DNA from: Candidatus Woesearchaeota archaeon
GTDB lineage: Archaea > Nanobdellota > Nanobdellia > SCGC-AAA011-G17 > JACPNG01
Direction of reading: 5' to 3'
Assembly (NCBI GenBank): GCA_018303365.1
Contig: JAGVYI010000008.1
Span: 1-53,658, forward strand
Length of the DNA stretch: 53,658 nucleotides
Both the position numbers and the translations under genes were made by a program. How positions within the stretch are numbered: position 1 is the stretch's first letter; every line of letters begins with the position of its first letter. Below, piece after piece: positions 31,934 through 39,661 of the stretch. A model generated the notes under the pieces. That model was not told the origin of the DNA, did not search any database, and was given only the letters and a program-made list of their open reading frames with translations.

Positions 31934-33610
31934 ATGTTTGAAAAAGATATAACCCGGACCTTAGCAAAAAAGTTAGGTAAGACCTATAAAGAAGTGGAGG
32001 GGTTTTTGGAGCAGCCTCAAGATTCCTCTTTTGGGGATATTTCCTTTCCTTGTTTTGTAGTTGCAAAGGAACAAAAAAGATCTCCTTCAGAGCTTGCAGC
32101 GCAGCTCAAGAAGAGTATTGCGCTTCCAAAAGGAATAGAAAATATAGAATCAAGCGGTCCATATTTGAATTTTTTTATAGATTACTCATCCCTAGCAGAA
32201 ACCATCTTTCAAGAGACAAGAAGAAAAAAGAGTAAGTTCGGACATACGAATAAGGGAAAAGGGGAGGTTGTGGTTATTGAGTTTTCTTCACCAAACATAG
32301 GTAAACCTTTTGGAATCGCTCATTTGCGCTCAACAGTTATAGGTAATAGCCTAAGCAACATTTACGCTTCGCAAGGGTACAAAGTGGAAAGGGTTAACTA
32401 TTTGGGAGATTGGGGTACGCAGTTCGGAAACTTAATGTGCGCGTTTCAAATGTGGGGTGATGAGAAAGAATTAAAGAAGAATTCCATAAGGCACCTTTTG
32501 AGTTTGTATATCAAATTTCATGCTGAAGCAGAAAAAGATGAAGCTTTAAAAAAGAAAGGCAAAGAGTGGTTTGTGAGGTTAGAGGGGGGAGATAAGAAAG
32601 CAAAGGGAATGTGGAAAAAGTTCTGCGGCCTCAACTTAAAAGAATTCAAAAGAATTTATCACCTTCTGAACATAAAAATAGACCACACCATCGGCGAGGC
32701 TTTCTACGAACCAATGCTTAAGAAGACGATCGAATTCTATAGGAACAAAGGATTGTTAAAAGAAAGCGATGGAGCCCTTATCCTTGAGTACCCAGATCTA
32801 CCCCCCGCGATTGTACAAAAAAAGGATGGGACCACAATTTATCTTACAAGAGACCTCGCAGCAGCAAAACACAGAAGGGATATCTTCAAGTTCAAAAAGA
32901 TGCTCTATGTAGCGGACGCAAGGCAAACCCTTCATTTTCAGCAACTTTTCAAGGCCTTGGAAATTGCAGGGTTCAAGTGGGCAAGACAATGTGAGCATGT
33001 CCCTTTTGGGGTCATGAAATTTAAAGGAGAACCCCTAGCGACTAGGAAGGGGTTCATCTTTTTAGAAGATGTTCTTCTAAAAGCCGTAAGCAAAGTAGAA
33101 TCTATCATAGATGAAAAGAACCCCTCTCTAGGCCATAAGGAAGAAGTGGCAAGGCAAGTTGCTTTTGGTGCTGTAATTTACTGGGACTTGAACAGCGACA
33201 GAGTGAGAGATGTTGTTTTTGATTTGGACCAAGTGCTTAACTTTGAAGGGGATACAGCCCCTTATATACAATATACCTCCGCACGTCTCTCAAGTATTCT
33301 CGCAAAGGCAAGCCCTCCCAGGAGAGTAGATTCCTTCCTCCTAAACTCTCAGGAAGAAAAGAAAATTATTGGTTCCTTAGCGAAGTTTGAGAGTGTAATT
33401 TGGGACGCAAAGATGCACAATAAGCCACACCTTCTTACAAACTACCTCTCTGCTCTTGCTCAAGAGTGTAACAATTTTTATAATAAACACCCTGTTCTGG
33501 TAAATGAAAAAGACTTACGGGCAGCAAGACTGCACCTCATCTTTGCAGCAAGGCAGGTATTAATAAATGGGTTGAGTTTACTAGGGATTCACTCCCCATT
33601 TCAGATGTAA
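31934..33610 (+). CDS. argS: Arginyl-tRNA synthetase
   Basis: EFSSPNIGKPFGIAHLRSTVIG (HIGH variant), NYLGDWGTQFG, DGTTIYLTRDLA and DALR domain (YIQYTSARLSSIL). Confidence 0.96.
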   Translation: MFEKDITRTLAKKLGKTYKEVEGFLEQPQDSSFGDISFPCFVVAKEQKRSPSELAAQLKKSIALPKGIENIESSGPYLNFFIDYSSLAETIFQETRRKKSKFGHTNKGKGEVVVIEFSSPNIGKPFGIAHLRSTVIGNSLSNIYASQGYKVERVNYLGDWGTQFGNLMCAFQMWGDEKELKKNSIRHLLSLYIKFHAEAEKDEALKKKGKEWFVRLEGGDKKAKGMWKKFCGLNLKEFKRIYHLLNIKIDHTIGEAFYEPMLKKTIEFYRNKGLLKESDGALILEYPDLPPAIVQKKDGTTIYLTRDLAAAKHRRDIFKFKKMLYVADARQTLHFQQLFKALEIAGFKWARQCEHVPFGVMKFKGEPLATRKGFIFLEDVLLKAVSKVESIIDEKNPSLGHKEEVARQVAFGAVIYWDLNSDRVRDVVFDLDQVLNFEGDTAPYIQYTSARLSSILAKASPPRRVDSFLLNSQEEKKIIGSLAKFESVIWDAKMHNKPHLLTNYLSALAQECNNFYNKHPVLVNEKDLRAARLHLIFAARQVLINGLSLLGIHSPFQM

Positions 33611-33647
33611 TAAAAATCTTTATAAAACGTTAGAAAGAAGGATTATT

Positions 33648-34097
33648 ATGCCCATTGTTGGATTTCAGTTTGATAAGGTTTCAGCAGAAAAGAAATCAAA
33701 AGTAAAATCTAAATTGGAGGTGAAAAATAGTATCAATATTAAAGGCATCGAATTTGAGTCTGTTGCCCTAACAAGAAGTAAAGACTCTTTGCTCCGTTTT
33801 AATTTCTCCTTTCACACTGAGTTTAGTCAAGGTCTTGGGGATGTTGTTTTAGAGGGTCACCTCTTATACTATGATGAAGAGAAAAAACTCAAAGATTTAA
33901 AAAGGTCCTGGGATAATAAGGAGGCAATGGACCCAAAACTAATGGCACGTATCTTAAATCACATCTTAATTCGTTGTAACATAAAGACCCTTGTTCTTTG
34001 TGAAGAAGTTAATCTCCCCCCCCACTTGCAGATACCAACAATCTCTCCAACCAAGCAAAATATTTCTAAAACTGCAGTGCACGACTATATCGGTTAG
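33648..34097 (+). CDS. Conserved-looking archaeal hypothetical protein, possible SecB-like fold, ending YIG
   Basis: Four beta-strand-like segments, two helices, then a Pro-rich NLPPHLQIP, a SecB-like topology (inference). tttataaa at 33619-33626. Confidence 0.75.
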   Translation: MPIVGFQFDKVSAEKKSKVKSKLEVKNSINIKGIEFESVALTRSKDSLLRFNFSFHTEFSQGLGDVVLEGHLLYYDEEKKLKDLKRSWDNKEAMDPKLMARILNHILIRCNIKTLVLCEEVNLPPHLQIPTISPTKQNISKTAVHDYIG

Positions 34098-34109
34098 CTT
34101 ATTGTGCGT

Positions 34110-34142
34110 TTATTCAACAATTCTTAAACAGTTATTCAACAC
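34110..34142 (+). repeat. Three 11-bp phased direct repeats upstream of the wHTH gene
   Basis: ttattcaacaa / ttcttaaacag / ttattcaacac, just upstream of a TATA-like tatttaata. Confidence 0.7.
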
Positions 34143-34179
34143 TCTAAATCTTATTTAATAGGTATTTTTCAACTACTTG

Positions 34180-34818
34180 ATGCCAGGAGAAAAGGATATC
34201 CTAGAAGAAAACATAAAGAAATCCTTTACAAAGGTAAAAGAAGAGATTTCTGGGCTTAAAGAAGTCCTAAAAGAAGATAGGTTGGTTCTAAACAAATTAA
34301 CCTCCCTTTTTGAAGCTCTAAAAGACGAACTGAGCTCTGTCAAGGCAGAGCTTCGAAAATCCGCTTCAAAGACAGAAGATATAAAAAATAGTTCCACAGG
34401 AAATAAAGGGGTCTATTCATTCATTCAACATTCATTCAACATTCATTCATTAGACAAAACTCTAGAAACAGTACCTTTCATAGAGCGAAATGTCTTTGAA
34501 ATGCTCAAAACTCTATCTAAACAAGAGTTTCTAACCCTCCTAACAATCTATCAACTAGAGGAAGAATCTAGTGGTCCTACCTCTTATTCTCGAATTTCTA
34601 AACAACTAAAGCTCTCTGAAGGCTGTATCCGGACATATGTCAGTTCTTTGTTAAAAAAAGGGGCCCCAATCCTCAAATCTCGCTTTAATAACCGTCAAAA
34701 CTTACTCTCAATTCGACAAGAATTCCGCTCTTTAAACCTCAAAAACAACCTTCTGACCCTATTCTATAGTCTAGACCCCTCTCAAACCACTCTCTTCGAC
34801 CATTACCCCCAAAATTAA
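34180..34818 (+). CDS. Coiled-coil plus C-terminal winged-helix protein with PIP-like tail (wHTH-A)
   Basis: N-terminal heptads (IKKSFTKVKEEISGLKEVL...), linker SSTGNKGV, wHTH LSKQEFLTLLTIYQLEE...SYSRISKQLKLSEGCIRTYVSSLLKKG, tail SQTTLFDHY. Confidence 0.85.
   Translation: MPGEKDILEENIKKSFTKVKEEISGLKEVLKEDRLVLNKLTSLFEALKDELSSVKAELRKSASKTEDIKNSSTGNKGVYSFIQHSFNIHSLDKTLETVPFIERNVFEMLKTLSKQEFLTLLTIYQLEEESSGPTSYSRISKQLKLSEGCIRTYVSSLLKKGAPILKSRFNNRQNLLSIRQEFRSLNLKNNLLTLFYSLDPSQTTLFDHYPQN
34391..34412 (+). promoter_or_regulatory. ORB-like element inside the wHTH-A coding sequence
   Basis: gttccacaggaaataaaggggt matches the archaeal ORB consensus (TTCCA..GGAAA.AAAGGGG) at least as well as the oriC boxes do. 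Confidence 0.7.
34415..34451 (+). repeat. Intragenic tandem repeats (attc / 11-bp attcattcaac)
   Basis: attc attcattcaac attcattcaac attcattcatt, starting 3 nt after the ORB-like box. The unit length is not a multiple of 3. Confidence 0.9.
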
Positions 34819-34864
34819 TCTTCCCCCTTTTATACCTATAGAAAGAATTCAGAAAACCCTCCTT

Positions 34865-34892
34865 ATTGTTCAGTGAACGTTCACTGAACAAT
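34865..34892. promoter_or_regulatory. Perfect 28-bp palindrome (operator-like), with a second core copy at 34906-34915
   Basis: attgttcagtgaac|gttcactgaacaat. The core tgaacgttca recurs at 34906-34915. Intergenic, between the two wHTH genes. Confidence 0.85.
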
Positions 34893-34961
34893 CCAGAGAC
34901 GTCTTTGAACGTTCACACAACAAAGAAAAAATTTATTAGTAAGGACTAAATTTTAGTTGTC

Positions 34962-35549
34962 ATGTTTGGATTTTTAAAAAGGAAAAGGGAGCAGCCCAAT
35001 CTGAGAGCTATGCACATATCTTTAACAAACTCTTTCAAGAATATAAAAAAAGATATATCCCATCTTCATGCAAAGAAACAAGACCATGAAGGTAGGTTAG
35101 ATCAAATAGAAAGACTGTTACACCATCTCCATGGAAAAATAGAGGTTATACTCTCATACTCTGACTCAGAGAGTCGGTCCTCTACGAGTCCAGAGGTCAT
35201 ATCCCCTAACGAGGCGACCAGCACTTTTGATTTTGGGGCACTTGACTCTTTGACAGTTGTACAGAGGAATATTTTGGAAATGTTAATAAGGCTCATGAAT
35301 GAGAGGGGTTCTAGTTTGGTATCTTTGAAAGACATTTCTGAGGACCTATATCCGAATAAAGACTATAGGGCCATAAGGTCTTTGATGTCAAGCTATTCTG
35401 ATTATCTTGAAGAGCAAGGATTTATAAGGAAAGCAAGAAAAGGAAGGCAAACCTATCTCCTTTTAACAGAAAGGACAAAGAAATCTCTCAAAAAGAGTAA
35501 AGGGAAAACAACGTTAAGTGTTAGAAAGAATGGTGAAAGCTCCAGGTAA
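34962..35549 (+). CDS. Coiled-coil plus C-terminal winged-helix protein (wHTH-B), probable paralogue of wHTH-A
   Basis: LTNSFKNIKKDISHL matches wHTH-A IKKSFTKVKEEISGL. Ser-rich linker, then LTVVQRNILEML...SLKDISEDLY...YLEEQGFIRKARKGRQTYLLLT. Confidence 0.82.
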   Translation: MFGFLKRKREQPNLRAMHISLTNSFKNIKKDISHLHAKKQDHEGRLDQIERLLHHLHGKIEVILSYSDSESRSSTSPEVISPNEATSTFDFGALDSLTVVQRNILEMLIRLMNERGSSLVSLKDISEDLYPNKDYRAIRSLMSSYSDYLEEQGFIRKARKGRQTYLLLTERTKKSLKKSKGKTTLSVRKNGESSR

Positions 35550-35580
35550 ATTTATAAACTGACCAGAAAAATGGGTTGTT

Positions 35581-36315
35581 ATGGATGTTGCTATCCTTTA
35601 TTCAGGTGGAAAAGATTCAACATATGCAATACATGAAGTTCTAAAAAAAGGATGGAATATTAAATACTTAATTTCTATAAAGCCGACCAGGACGGATTGT
35701 TATCTTTTTCATTATGCTACCATTGAGCACACCAAAACGCTTGCAAGAATTCTTGGTTATAAGCATGTCTACGAAACCTGCAATGTTGCAGATCCCAAAA
35801 AAGAGGCAGAGATAGTTAAGAAGATAGTTGAAAAAAGCCCTGTTGATGCAATTGTTTTGGGTGGAACAGGGCTCCAGCAAACTCAGATCAAAAGCATTCA
35901 AGAGGTTCTAAGCCATCTAAAAGTAGGAGCCTTTGCAATGCACGATTCCCTTGATCATGATGGTCTTGTAAGGCAAATGATTGAGGATGGTTATAGGATC
36001 ATTATCACTCAGATTGCAGCAGAAGGTCTGACAGAAGAGTGGTTGGGTAAGGAGATAACCAAAGAGAATGCTGAAAAACTCTTTAACCTCTCAAGAAAGT
36101 ATGGTTTCCATTGTGGTGGTGAAGGGGGTCATTTTGATTCTCTTGTAATAGACGGCCCTATTTTTAAACGAAGCTTAGAGATTTTAAGCGCAGAAAGGAT
36201 TATGGAAAGTGAGTGTGTAGGTCACTTGATTCTTAAAAAAATTAGAGTAAAGACTAAACCGATAGAACATTCTAAAAAAATATATAATTCTCAATGTACC
36301 CTGACTAAGGACTGA
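35581..36315 (+). CDS. dph6: Diphthine--ammonia ligase / Dph6-family PP-loop ATPase
   Basis: LYSGGKDS, YLFH, WLGKEI and GEGGHFDSLVIDGPIF. Confidence 0.88.
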   Translation: MDVAILYSGGKDSTYAIHEVLKKGWNIKYLISIKPTRTDCYLFHYATIEHTKTLARILGYKHVYETCNVADPKKEAEIVKKIVEKSPVDAIVLGGTGLQQTQIKSIQEVLSHLKVGAFAMHDSLDHDGLVRQMIEDGYRIIITQIAAEGLTEEWLGKEITKENAEKLFNLSRKYGFHCGGEGGHFDSLVIDGPIFKRSLEILSAERIMESECVGHLILKKIRVKTKPIEHSKKIYNSQCTLTKD

Positions 36316-36532: not shown

Positions 36533-37216
36533 ATGCTGCTTAAAATGGCAAAGAAAGTCGGAAATAAACCCCATGGTAAGAAAAGGGGTTCTAAAAAGTG
36601 TTTTATAGCTATAGACGAGTCCAATCATGGAGGGAACCCTGAGGTCATAGTTGCGGCTCTTACAAATAACCCCGCCTATATACAGCCAAACCTTGTTGCA
36701 GGGGGAACTTTGGATTCTGAAGGTTATTTTTTAATTAGAGGTGGTTTGTCGAAACGCAGGAACAAAAGTAGGAGAACTCCCTCTCCAGAAGGTGTCGAGT
36801 TTGTATATGCAATTTTATCCAAAGAGGTTGTTGCTGCCTACTCTTATGGGGAGGTGAAGTCTTTTTTTGTCAGTCAGTTAGTGCTTACTCTTTTGGAAAG
36901 AAAGGGACTCGGAAAACGTTCAAAAATAGAATTGTATATAGATGGGGTACTTTCAGAGAAGGCCACGCAAACCATTGTAGGAAGTATCCAAGCAAAATAT
37001 CCTCTTTTTGACTCCAGAAGGCTTTACACTTGGCCTAATTTGGACTGTTGTATACCACTCGTAAATGAAGCAGACGCCTATGCTTACAGGATTAAACGAC
37101 CTTACGAAAATCTCAACAGATCAGGAAGGGGTGGTCTTCAGCATCCAAGAAGAGTTAATCAAAAACAGAGGGTTGAAATTGGACTTCCGGAAAGATCTAA
37201 AAAGCCTAGAGACTGA
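36533..37216 (+). CDS. RNase H-like fold putative nuclease
   Basis: FIAIDESNHG...LYIDG...EADAYAY acidic pattern as in RNase HII/DUF3800-like proteins. The start may be 36545. Confidence 0.6.
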   Translation: MLLKMAKKVGNKPHGKKRGSKKCFIAIDESNHGGNPEVIVAALTNNPAYIQPNLVAGGTLDSEGYFLIRGGLSKRRNKSRRTPSPEGVEFVYAILSKEVVAAYSYGEVKSFFVSQLVLTLLERKGLGKRSKIELYIDGVLSEKATQTIVGSIQAKYPLFDSRRLYTWPNLDCCIPLVNEADAYAYRIKRPYENLNRSGRGGLQHPRRVNQKQRVEIGLPERSKKPRD

Positions 37217-38009
37217 GCTTAAACTGCGTGGTTTCTCAAAAGAGACCGTTAAAACCTACCTTTATCACAACGAAGTTTTTCTAAAGTCGGTTAAAAAAAA
37301 GCCGAAAGAAATTAATGAGAAAGACATAAAAGCCTACCTTGTCCACCTCCTAGCAGACAAAAATGCTCATCCGAGGACGATTTCTCTTAAGAAGTCTGCC
37401 TTGAAGTTCTTCTATGATGGACTTCTCAAGAAAAATATTGTTCTCATAAAAACCCCCAAACTGCCTAAGAATGTCCCTGAAACCCTCTCAAAAGATGAAA
37501 TTCGCACACTCATAGGATCTGCCCCATCCACAAAAGCAATGTTAATAATCAAATTTCTCTATGCCACTGGCCTACGTGTTTCAGAATTAACCCACCTAAG
37601 GGTAAAGGACCTCAATCTAAAAGACAAATCTGGTTGGGTACGTCAAGGGAAGGGGGCCAAAGACCGTTTTTTTCCAATTTCAGATTCCATGCTTATATGT
37701 TTTGAGCATTACATAAAAGATATGCCCCAAGGGAATTATCTTTTTTCAGGTAAAAATGGTCCGCTCACCACAAGGGCCGTACAGAAAGTTATCCAAACCA
37801 CGGCAAAAAGAGCAGGAATAACGAAAAAAGTAACACCTCACAAGTTGCGCCACTCCTTTGCAACCCATCTGCTCAATGAAGGCACGGATATCCGGCTCAT
37901 CCAGGAGCTTCTCGGTCACGCGCAACTTTCTACAACCCAAATTTATACTCATGTCTCTAAAGAGCAACTCAGGAAGGTAAAGAACCCTCTAGATATTCTT
38001 GGTATTTAG
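37179..38009 (+). CDS. xerA: Site-specific tyrosine recombinase XerA
   Basis: Likely TTG start at 37179 (276 aa). LRGFS.ETVKTY, LYATGLRVSE, GKGAKDR, TPHKLRHSFATHLL and LLGH...TTQIYTH give a full R-K-H-R-H-Y set. Confidence 0.92.
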   Translation: MDFRKDLKSLETELKLRGFSKETVKTYLYHNEVFLKSVKKKPKEINEKDIKAYLVHLLADKNAHPRTISLKKSALKFFYDGLLKKNIVLIKTPKLPKNVPETLSKDEIRTLIGSAPSTKAMLIIKFLYATGLRVSELTHLRVKDLNLKDKSGWVRQGKGAKDRFFPISDSMLICFEHYIKDMPQGNYLFSGKNGPLTTRAVQKVIQTTAKRAGITKKVTPHKLRHSFATHLLNEGTDIRLIQELLGHAQLSTTQIYTHVSKEQLRKVKNPLDILGI

Positions 38010-38932: not shown

Positions 38933-39661
38933 GTGAAAGCGGTCATTTTCCTTTTGTTTTGTGCTGTTGTTCTTTCTTTAACTGCTTGTAGCGCTCCTGT
39001 AACGGGTGATGGGCCTCAAGTCGCGAAGTTCACTATCTTGGAAAACAAAACACTCGATCAAGAGGAAACGGCTGAAGAGCCAAATATTGTTAAAGAAGAG
39101 TCACCAGTACCGCAAAAGGTGGAAGGTGATAGTCAATCAAAAGAAGAATTTAGGCTCAAAGGAGGAGAAGAAATAACCTTCAAAGGGGTAGCTGTGAAGG
39201 TTGGTCAGATAACCCCAGAAGCAAGGTTCCTCGTATCAGTCGATGATGTTACCTATATCATAACAGAAACAAAATATGAAGAACTCATCAAAGGTCTTCT
39301 AGTGATGGTCAAGGATTTCGTTTATAATAAGACTCATCATGAAGAGAGTTTTGTTGTATTAAAGGTAAAGGGGCCCGACCTTGGTCCGGACGATTATATA
39401 TTCCTCGGAGAAGATAGGAAAGTCATAATGGGAGATAATTTTAAGGTAACTACCTTTGAGCCCAAACAGAAGCTTATAGAACTTCTGGTTGCAGACAGTT
39501 TCGTAGTCCGCTTAAAAGACAGTTTCGTAGTCCGCTTAAAAGAAGGAGACTCAAAAATGGTTGGTGTTTATAACCTGACAAACCTAAGAACTTTTCCAAG
39601 AGACAAGCGTTTTGAAAGTTCTGCAATTATCAGGGTGCTCGTACAAAATAATCAACAATAA
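38933..39661 (+). CDS. Putative lipoprotein / surface protein
   Basis: GTG start, signal peptide with LTAC lipobox, acidic linker and beta-rich domains with repeated RLKxG[ED] units. Confidence 0.75.
   Translation: MKAVIFLLFCAVVLSLTACSAPVTGDGPQVAKFTILENKTLDQEETAEEPNIVKEESPVPQKVEGDSQSKEEFRLKGGEEITFKGVAVKVGQITPEARFLVSVDDVTYIITETKYEELIKGLLVMVKDFVYNKTHHEESFVVLKVKGPDLGPDDYIFLGEDRKVIMGDNFKVTTFEPKQKLIELLVADSFVVRLKDSFVVRLKEGDSKMVGVYNLTNLRTFPRDKRFESSAIIRVLVQNNQQ
39493..39543 (+). repeat. Perfect 24-bp in-frame tandem duplication
   Basis: agacagtttcgtagtccgcttaaa occurs twice (plus aga), encoding DSFVVRLK twice. Confidence 0.95.

Follow-up and report, generated by a model that had tools for sequence, protein, structure and literature searches.

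The window analyzed here (the whole stretch of DNA, 53,658 nucleotides of contig JAGVYI010000008.1) comes from a Candidatus Woesearchaeota archaeon whose genome assembly, GCA_018303365.1, comprises 702,038 bases in 22 contigs and is 90.9% complete. Proteins of this genome have database relatives that carry the names Woesearchaeota or Nanoarchaeota, in line with a DPANN archaeon. The genes of the window include those for the large and small subunits of PolD and for the initiator Orc1/Cdc6. The subject of this report is gene A, an open reading frame (ORF) for a coiled-coil winged helix-turn-helix (wHTH) protein located 5.5 kb from the likely replication origin oriC. The DNA encoding the linker of this protein carries one full origin recognition box (ORB) of the type present at oriC in the clade, followed directly by species-specific short repeats. 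The features of the gene A locus, and those of oriC with which they were compared, are listed below.

27385..28596, minus strand: orc1/cdc6 gene (Pfam Cdc6_C 92.8 bits, Cdc6_lid 82 bits), encoding the expected binder of the box
28652..28677, minus strand: left oriC ORB, matrix score 27.7
28955..28980, plus strand: right oriC ORB, matrix score 30.6, forming an inverted pair with the left ORB
34110..34141, plus strand: promoter repeat array, two TTATTCAACA copies (34110 and 34132) separated by a degenerate unit (Tandem Repeats Finder [TRF] and exact copies)
34151..34160, plus strand: TATA-like box TTATTTAATA, read from the sequence, 20-29 nt before the ATG
34180..34818, plus strand: gene A (ORF, AlphaFold2 model, Foldseek and family searches), with an alternative TTG start at 34177
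34391..34413, plus strand: intragenic ORB, made up of the mini-ORB dyad TTCCAcaGGAAAT, a 3-nt spacer and GGGGTC; third-ranked ORB of the genome
34414..34451, plus strand: intragenic repeat array, CATTCATTCAA in 2.9 copies, a G-poor microsatellite (TRF)
34774..34806, plus strand: codons for DPSQTTLFDHY, a tail resembling a PCNA-interacting protein (PIP) box (tail survey and contacts in a complex model)

An origin recognition box within a coding sequence

The likely oriC (28645-28985) lies directly upstream of orc1/cdc6 in an AT-rich intergenic stretch (28597-29090) with two inverted ORB-like elements, which flank about 270 bp of DNA of 76% AT and whose G-strings face outwards. The same architecture recurs in the clade, where oriC ORBs of the form TTCCAnnGGAAAT-nnn-GG[TG]G[TG] occur as an inverted pair around approximately 300 bp of AT-rich DNA.

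The 22-nt box GTTCCACAGGAAATAAAGGGGT in gene A (34391-34412) was the sole match in the window at up to three mismatches, and none of 100 shuffled sequences contained a match. The bare 12-nt core TTCCANNGGAAA, allowing one mismatch, was found 10 times compared to 8.2 expected, which is not beyond chance, so that the case rests on the full element and on comparison across genomes; exact copies of the core occurred only at oriC (28665) and in the gene A box. A weight matrix was built from 21 ORB-like sites located up to 1.2 kb upstream of cdc6 in 20 relatives, with the source genome and all intragenic boxes excluded. Scanning the whole 702-kb genome with this matrix returned 28955 on the plus strand (30.6), 34390 on the plus strand (29.0) and 28677 on the minus strand (27.7), and the next best site scored 16.0. 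The near-consensus ORB that the initial annotation had placed in the linker of gene A was thereby confirmed as unique in the window and on par with the oriC ORBs. Its layout and orientation are those of the right-hand oriC ORB, and judged by its sequence the box is a genuine third ORB of the genome. No inverted partner ORB was found at gene A, where the minus-strand matches represent the palindromic core read backwards.

Among the relatives, the pattern TTCCANNGGAAANNNNGGGGT with at most one mismatch was detected in 54 of 61 genomes (84 matches compared to 3 for the reversed control), typically with one match in gene A and the others beside cdc6. The mini-ORB core positions TCC, A6, G10 and A12 were identical in all 70 intragenic boxes and T2 in 65 of them, and in the G-rich extension 3' of the core, GGG at positions 19-21 was present in 70 and G18 in 68. 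The published descriptions give 'TTCC' and 'GAA' as the perfectly conserved core of ORBs and mini-ORBs (PMC1904270) and report that Cdc6 from one species binds the ORBs of other species (PMC4640148).

The box was present in 70 of 71 distinct gene A homologues from two orders, drawn from loci L001-L100, the exception (L021) being a partial ORF. In the first 30 loci, a strict regular expression retrieved it from 22 and a mismatch-tolerant search from 29. In the window it encodes residues S71-V78 of the ORF at 34180-34818, and in all homologues it falls within the disordered linker. Frame 1 (SSxGNxGV) applies to the box in 65 genes; the other 5, which come from five genomes, use frame 0 (VPQE.KGS). 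In the frame 1 genes, TCC was used at the box in 65/65 compared to 13.3% of Ser codons elsewhere in the same genes, GGG in 65/65 compared to 19.4% of Gly codons elsewhere, and GGA in 61/65 compared to 29.7%; these homologues are kin and not independent, but at approximately 40% protein identity their synonymous sites should be saturated. The occurrence of two frames together with invariant rare codons places the constraint on the DNA and not on the peptide. Synonymous-site conservation, which had been proposed as the test of the box, was strongly positive and extended even to two frames, while the free synonymous variation that was to speak against it was not seen, the codons being near-invariant. 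By its codon usage and frames, the box is constrained as a nucleic-acid element, and it provides a clean natural case of a cis-element in a disordered protein linker that was kept through reading-frame changes.

Three other identities were considered for the box and rejected. A peptide motif was ruled out on the two grounds given above. For an RNA element, no Rfam match at E ≤ 1 was found in 33600-35600, and the fold of 34370-34470 gave z = +0.73 against shuffles. For a dif/Xer site, suggested by a tyrosine recombinase gene 2.2 kb downstream, the box was unlike the published 11-6-11 dif layout, given for Thermococcales as ATTGGATATAA-TCGGCC-TTATATCTAAA (PMC4640148).

Further copies of the box were encountered in two relatives: G037 (L103, G037:C3 position 1440) carries an extra one in the spacer after gene A, and G136 (L091) a second, partial one after the repeats. 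In sequencing runs X1, X8 and X9, many short contigs of other organisms matched only the box and the first ATTC repeats (34390-34427). In X1, the depth was 89 at the box and first repeats and 13-16 on the flanks, which fits conservation of the box among co-occurring relatives.

Repeat arrays, protein fold and C-terminal tail

Within gene A, TRF reported a repeat at 34418-34449 with a period of 11, 2.9 copies and 100% matches, and in the promoter a repeat at 34110-34141 with a period of 11 and 76% matches. The 11-bp repeat described at the outset is real in the window, and units are likewise present in the promoter; their proposed 11-bp spacing there was correct in part, as the two exact TTATTCAACA copies lie 22 bp apart, i.e., two helical turns, and the middle unit is degenerate. 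The unit T[TC]ATTCAAC occurred 14 times on both strands of the 702-kb genome, with 4 occurrences at the gene A locus, the only place where it clusters. The position of the TATA-like box would presumably give a leaderless transcript, as assumed from general knowledge of archaeal promoters.

Microsatellite-like repeats directly followed the box in 29 of 29 box-bearing loci among the first 30, and in every gene it was the G-string side of the ORB that bordered on the array. Over the 48 nt that follow the box, a short best period was seen in 70/70 genes, and the mean fraction of G in the coding strand was 0.08. The units are lineage specific (ATTC, CACT, AATC, CAAA, CAGA and CACG, plus longer units of 8-16 nt). 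The best period was 4 in 32 genes, 8 in 11, 11 in 12, 12 in 7, 15 in 5, 16 in 2 and 10 in 1. As a period of 11 was best in just 12 of the 70, the helical phasing seen in the window is not general, the commonest best period being 4. By eye, nearly all units follow the form (NNCA)n, namely, TTCA, CTCA, ATCA, AACA, GACA, CGCA and ACCA, so that a CA step recurs at 4-bp intervals along the G-poor coding strand. Arrangements of an initiator box plus short repeats are known in bacteria (DnaA-trios), and the box with its repeats may bear a formal resemblance to them.

In the window's order, the 160 nt 5' of each gene carry that gene's own unit in the same orientation. The gene's own promoter and intragenic array shared a mean of 11.4 7-mer positions, compared to 2.47 in cross-species pairs, and the observed sum was reached in 0 of 10000 permutations. 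The controls gave 1.2 for the region from -320 to -160, 1.55 for the region beyond the stop codon and 0.55 for the reverse complement. In one family (G025 and G051), the whole module of ORB plus repeats is duplicated, with one copy within the gene and the other approximately 100 bp 5' of its ATG. The predicted co-variation of adjacent with promoter repeats is therefore directly observed in the window's order, and the comparison supports regarding both as cis-elements that co-vary between species. No change in repeat length was detected in two bridging contigs from two other samples (X6 and X8; Logan contigs only), and depth was flat on the assembled Logan contigs; the Logan assemblies of X1 and X9 break at the repeats. 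This result does not bear on rare variants or on expression, and no RNA sample was among those listed as containing the locus.

The AlphaFold2 model of the gene A protein (mean predicted local distance difference test [pLDDT] 77) comprises a helix or coiled coil (residues 4-62), a disordered linker (63-97, with pLDDT below 50 for 65-96), a wHTH domain (98-198, pLDDT approximately 90) and a disordered tail (199-212). Foldseek matched the model to the MarR/ArsR-type regulators ST1710, MarR, ZitR and CzrA at E values of 2e-4 to 3e-3 and returned no replication-specific match. HTH_11 scored 21.7 against a cut-off of 25 and the MarR model was absent from the Pfam listing; the ESM Atlas and databases yielded only generic HTH or 'hypothetical protein' entries from Nanobdellota.

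The recognition helix differs by repeat type, reading GC[IV]R[TS]Y in 29/29 ATTC-type genes, [SG]G[VT]RSY in CACT-type genes and S[SA][IV]RDY in the CAGA/CAAA types of the second order and of three genes of the window's order (L076-L078). In the remaining CAAA-type genes of the window's order, the helix differs. The expected co-variation of repeats with recognition-helix residues was found as an association by type, but its independent contrasts were not significant; as tested, it is a lead whose independence of phylogeny is not supported.

The protein ends in DPSQTTLFDHYPQN. The canonical PIP box is given as QXXhXXaa, and the short PCNA-binding pentapeptides of Pyrococcus as QKSFF and AKTLF, in PMC2770678. 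At PIP position 7, the tail in the window, QTTLFDHY, has H. Qxx[LIMV] is present in the last 22 residues in 48 of the 50 genes of the window's order, and many of them end in QxxLF, which resembles the short Pyrococcus motifs, or in QxxL[SF]Dx[FYL]. A complex of the source genome's PCNA with gene A residues 165-212 was modeled with a score of 0.64 compared to 0.00 for the best control; 58 of 80 solved complexes attained this mark, as did 2 of 110 mismatched pairs. The runs agreed in at least 62% of contacts and the partner pLDDT was at least 45. Tail residues 200-207 and 209 contacted PCNA residues 39, 42-46, 125, 127, 199, 224-225, 241 and 243-248, which places the tail in the PIP pocket formed by the interdomain connector and the C terminus of PCNA, although the pass may reflect memory of solved complexes. 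Since PIP-PCNA complexes have already been solved, the pass indicates likeness to them, not binding by the gene A tail. The PIP-like ending noticed originally is real and docks like a PIP motif in the model, but its conservation is limited to the window's order.

Conservation and neighborhood of gene A

Homologues of gene A were found in 54 of 61 related genomes and orc1/cdc6 orthologues in 60 of the 61 searched. In a class-wide sample, gene A was present in 101 of 251 genomes, with full-length matches only in the window's order and one further order. In a profile search of the family, 982 cluster representatives passed E ≤ 0.001, and 691 of these also passed E ≤ 1e-10. The linkage of gene A to the origin is seen directly: the order and orientation cdc6(-), oriC, gene A(+) was the same in 21 of 21 fetched regions, and in 33 relatives with cdc6 and gene A on one contig the spacing was always 4.5-15.5 kb. 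A further 14 relatives have fragmented assemblies with cdc6 and gene A on separate contigs. Five genomes of the second order were compared, of which four showed a spacing of 2.3-13 kb in the same orientation and one had the genes on different contigs. In 20 genes of the second order, the box is followed by (CAGA), (CAAA) or (CCAA) repeats.

Orc1 is 53-76% identical across the same genomes. A second Orc1 paralogue exists in the window's order. The five second-order genomes each had one Orc1/Cdc6 match at E ≤ 1e-10, and the gene A locus carried the box in all five, so that a second paralogue is not needed for retention of the box. Two relatives (G007:C49:9952-12243 and G026:C50:904-3177) matched orc1/cdc6 in two pieces of one frame of 773-776 aa; the usual frame has approximately 405 aa, and this length suggests a large in-frame insertion, possibly an intein.

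The genes past oriC are, in order, LonB, ArgRS, a 149-aa ORF, gene A and gene B. Two further features lie directly 3' of gene A.

34866..34891, no strand assigned: perfect 26-bp palindrome TTGTTCAGTGAACGTTCACTGAACAA, read from the sequence, with its core TGAACGTTCA again at 34906-34915
34962..35549, plus strand: gene B, a second coiled-coil wHTH gene in tandem (Pfam DUF6293_C 26.2 bits, under the cut-off of 27)

Gene B was present in 32 of 61 genomes, mostly directly 3' of gene A. The 10-bp core of the palindrome is repeated 32 bp on. In relatives (L002, L006, L010, L017 and L018), the spacer between genes A and B has its own GC-richer palindromes or repeats, namely, GTTCGACGAACCGTTCGTCGAAC, arrays of GGTCTATAGA, or TGACGTCAGTGACGCGTCACTGACGTCA. 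From its sequence turnover, the spacer palindrome is probably a separate, fast-evolving operator of gene B.

The 149-aa ORF (33648-34097), directly 5' of gene A, has no Pfam match. By eye, its C-terminal coding sequence (...NLPPH...DYIG) recurs 5' of gene A in many relatives, which assigns the ORF to the conserved neighborhood. A tyrosine recombinase of Xer-like type (37065-38009; Phage_integrase and an N-terminal SAM-like domain) and a Hef/XPF-type helicase-nuclease (39773-41974) are encoded downstream of gene A and render this origin-side neighborhood rich in genes for DNA transactions. A perfect 24-bp tandem repeat (39493-39543, 2.1 copies, 100% matches) lies within an ORF at 38933-39661 that has no Pfam match.

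A proposed composite site linked to replication and its alternatives

The arrangement is best accommodated by a composite site, occupied by Orc1/Cdc6 at the ORB and by the gene A protein at the arrays, which would autoregulate gene A in a replication-linked manner, and this account is rated as moderately probable. Orc1/Cdc6 would bind the invariant ORB in gene A, as an invariant box fits a highly conserved binder and Orc1 is conserved to the extent given above. The gene A protein, dimerized via its N-terminal coiled coil, would bind the fast-evolving array beside the ORB, because arrays with rapid turnover fit a binder that also changes rapidly, for which the gene's own product is the obvious candidate. 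In the window's order, this protein would also occupy the matching promoter array, immediately 5' of the TATA box of gene A. With approximately 300 bp between them, the two arrays could be bridged, and bridging would repress or tune gene A transcription. Occupancy of the ORB by the initiator would feed into this control, and a further tether to PCNA would be provided in the window's order by the C-terminal Qxx[L]-type tail. On this reading, replication would not start at the locus, which would instead serve as an accessory site near the origin and couple the initiator to the level or state of a factor that sits on DNA and binds PCNA. The binding events, the bridging of the arrays and the regulatory outcome are what we infer from the conserved arrangement.

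Several observations weigh against this account. The intragenic box always reads GGGGT, compared to GGTG[TG] in most oriC ORBs, so that another binding mode or another binder is possible. The wHTH fold is generic (MarR/ArsR-like, E approximately 2e-4), and all Pfam matches of gene A are below the cut-offs. In the tree-based test of recognition helix versus repeat, 2, 1 and 2 supported independent contrasts were obtained, and the sign tests were not significant. Among 29 loci of the window's order, 5 have no 7-mer in common between promoter and intragenic array. The tail departs from the canonical PIP box in having H in place of the first aromatic residue, and its pass in complex modeling may be model memory. 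In the second order, promoter copies are lacking (1.35 shared 7-mers in own compared to 1.15 in cross pairs), and 17 of 20 genes end in ...L.LREL without a PIP-like tail. As the second order retains box and repeats without promoter copies or tail, these two do not belong to the conserved core, and bridging and PCNA tethering cannot be the conserved core function. On comparison of the two orders, the conserved core is the coiled coil, the ORB with its microsatellite and the wHTH domain, with promoter copy and tail specific to the window's order.

Replication-coupled control of the initiator is an alternative that we regard as unlikely. The first fork from oriC, 5.5 kb away, would bring loaded PCNA to Orc1, parked on the ORB beside an array-bound protein with a clamp-binding tail, and would reset or release the initiator once per cycle, or else inactivate or re-license it. 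E. coli datA/DARS, the Hda-clamp system RIDA and Vibrio crtS combine non-origin initiator sites with a clamp-binding accessory protein, and the locus would be the first archaeal counterpart of the datA/RIDA/crtS type. It resembles these systems in a candidate initiator site at a fixed position from the origin (2.3-15.5 kb, in fixed orientation, in two orders) and in a clamp-binding-like protein whose tail is modeled in the PIP pocket of PCNA. The junction of the G-string side of the ORB with the array in every gene also fits, as does the clustering of the repeat unit at this locus only, by which the protein appears to have no other target. The proteins are unrelated to those of the bacterial systems, a single box cannot titrate much initiator, and no sign of initiator inactivation or of ATP-hydrolysis control of Orc1 was seen at gene A. 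The module is kept in the second order even though 17/20 of the genes there lack the tail, and literature searches gave no archaeal precedent.

Still less probable is a centromere-like anchor, in which the wHTH protein would coat the arrays of its own gene and mark the origin region for segregation. In Bacillus subtilis, a parS site lies inside the spo0J gene, and gene A likewise has putative sites in and next to itself, is origin-proximal and conserved, and encodes a coiled coil that could bridge DNA. Against this, no ParA/SegA-type ATPase was found by the Pfam scan of the 18 neighboring proteins (the rest of the genome was not scanned), the wHTH domain is MarR-like and not ParB- or SegB-like, and the invariant ORB would be unexplained.

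A further reading, in which a conserved protein distinct from Orc1/Cdc6 binds the box and the likeness to ORBs extends to a shared half-site only, is very unlikely. The strict GGGGT would speak for such a factor, but the matrix trained on oriC sites ranks the box as high as true oriC ORBs, and the five second-order genomes with a single Orc1/Cdc6 match each still hold it.

A second replication origin with its own initiator-like protein, comparable to Sulfolobus oriC3/WhiP or to an iteron plasmid replicon with a host-initiator box, ranks marginally lower again. Iteron replicons consist of a Rep protein, iterons, host-initiator boxes and autoregulatory repeats at the rep promoter, and Rep initiators of iteron plasmids have two tandem winged-helix domains (WH1-WH2). 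The locus mirrors them in its ORB, oriented as the right-hand oriC ORB, in the species-specific direct repeats beside this initiator box and in the copies at the promoter of the adjacent winged-helix gene. It differs in being chromosomal and vertically conserved, in its mostly 4-nt intragenic microsatellites, and in the lack of an AT-rich unwinding element, the 250 bp between promoter array and box having 66.5% AT compared to 76.2% in the oriC unwinding element. Moreover, the protein has a single MarR-like wHTH domain and no Rep WH1-WH2 or Cdt1-like pair, and a genome of 0.7 Mb would gain little from two origins separated by 5.5 kb. With one ORB, no inverted partner, no unwinding element and no Rep- or Cdt1-like fold, a second origin at gene A, as once suggested for this locus, is unlikely.

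Finally, a contingency (phase-variable) locus, in which slippage of 4-nt repeats shifts the wHTH frame and the ORB is incidental, could draw on a repeat period not divisible by 3 in 58/70 genes and on the two frames of the box, which imply that frame changes happened during evolution, but it is highly improbable given that 70/70 genes are in frame, that the two bridging contigs of other samples (contigs only) showed no length change and that the promoter-repeat co-variation would be unexplained, and of its variants, conservation at the peptide level and by codon bias, the former is excluded by the two frames and the invariant rare codons.

The composite site that we favor has partial parallels in known systems. 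lac O2 and gal OI are auxiliary intragenic operators paired with a promoter operator. Gene A similarly has a second putative operator in the coding sequence paired with one in the promoter, but here the intragenic site is an array joined to an initiator box, and the gene that contains it encodes the regulator itself. The dp1 gene of Thermococcales contains, a few kb from oriC, an ORB3/mini-ORB cluster that is conserved across the order (Matsunaga et al. 2007, PMC1904270). In Pyrococcus, this cluster was bound by Cdc6 in chromatin immunoprecipitation as strongly as oriC; its function is given as unknown in the main account, and Supplementary Figure 1 of the same paper maps further mini-ORBs (PMC1904270). 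Like dp1, gene A harbors ORB sequence within its coding region at a distance of a few kb from oriC. The two cases differ in that the host gene here encodes a wHTH regulator, that it has a single ORB with co-evolving arrays, and that this ORB is positioned in a disordered linker and read in two frames. The core search and the matrix scan found no ORB in the window's own dp1 gene. At Sulfolobus origins, the non-initiator DNA-binding protein UBP recognizes a specific motif, ucm, beside ORBs; UBP is reported to bind, through beta-hairpins, this motif within the unwinding element together with hundreds of sites elsewhere, and to make contact with MCM (PMC12141716). Compared to UBP, the gene A protein is a wHTH protein with putative sites confined to its own gene and PCNA as its modeled partner.

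Apart from Thermococcales dp1, literature listings and abstracts (supplements apart) contained no paper that links ORBs to the DPANN, Woesearchaeota, Pacearchaeota or Nanoarchaeota lineages, to iterons or to a location within genes. The same material described no ORB fused to co-evolving arrays in the linker of the likely array binder, retained despite frame changes in two orders and accompanied by a PIP-like tail in one. The initial annotation knew of no description of the arrangement, which applies to the full combination, but intragenic ORBs near oriC as such had been published, as the dp1 work documents in its main account (PMC1904270).

The preserved box and repeats in two DPANN orders point to an undescribed origin-linked control module, as far as sequence comparison can indicate. 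Little is known of how origin firing is restricted to one event per cycle in archaea, and for the DPANN archaea this question has not been studied. The locus offers a sequence-level handle in the form of an invariant initiator box, a fast-evolving array with a promoter copy and a protein with a clamp-binding-like tail, and all three parts are accessible in vitro with recombinant proteins and oligonucleotides. The box in gene A also bears on the detection of overlapping DNA and protein constraints in genome scans. If replication-coupled control of the initiator were true, such a module would have been kept in a coding linker through the whole history of two DPANN orders.

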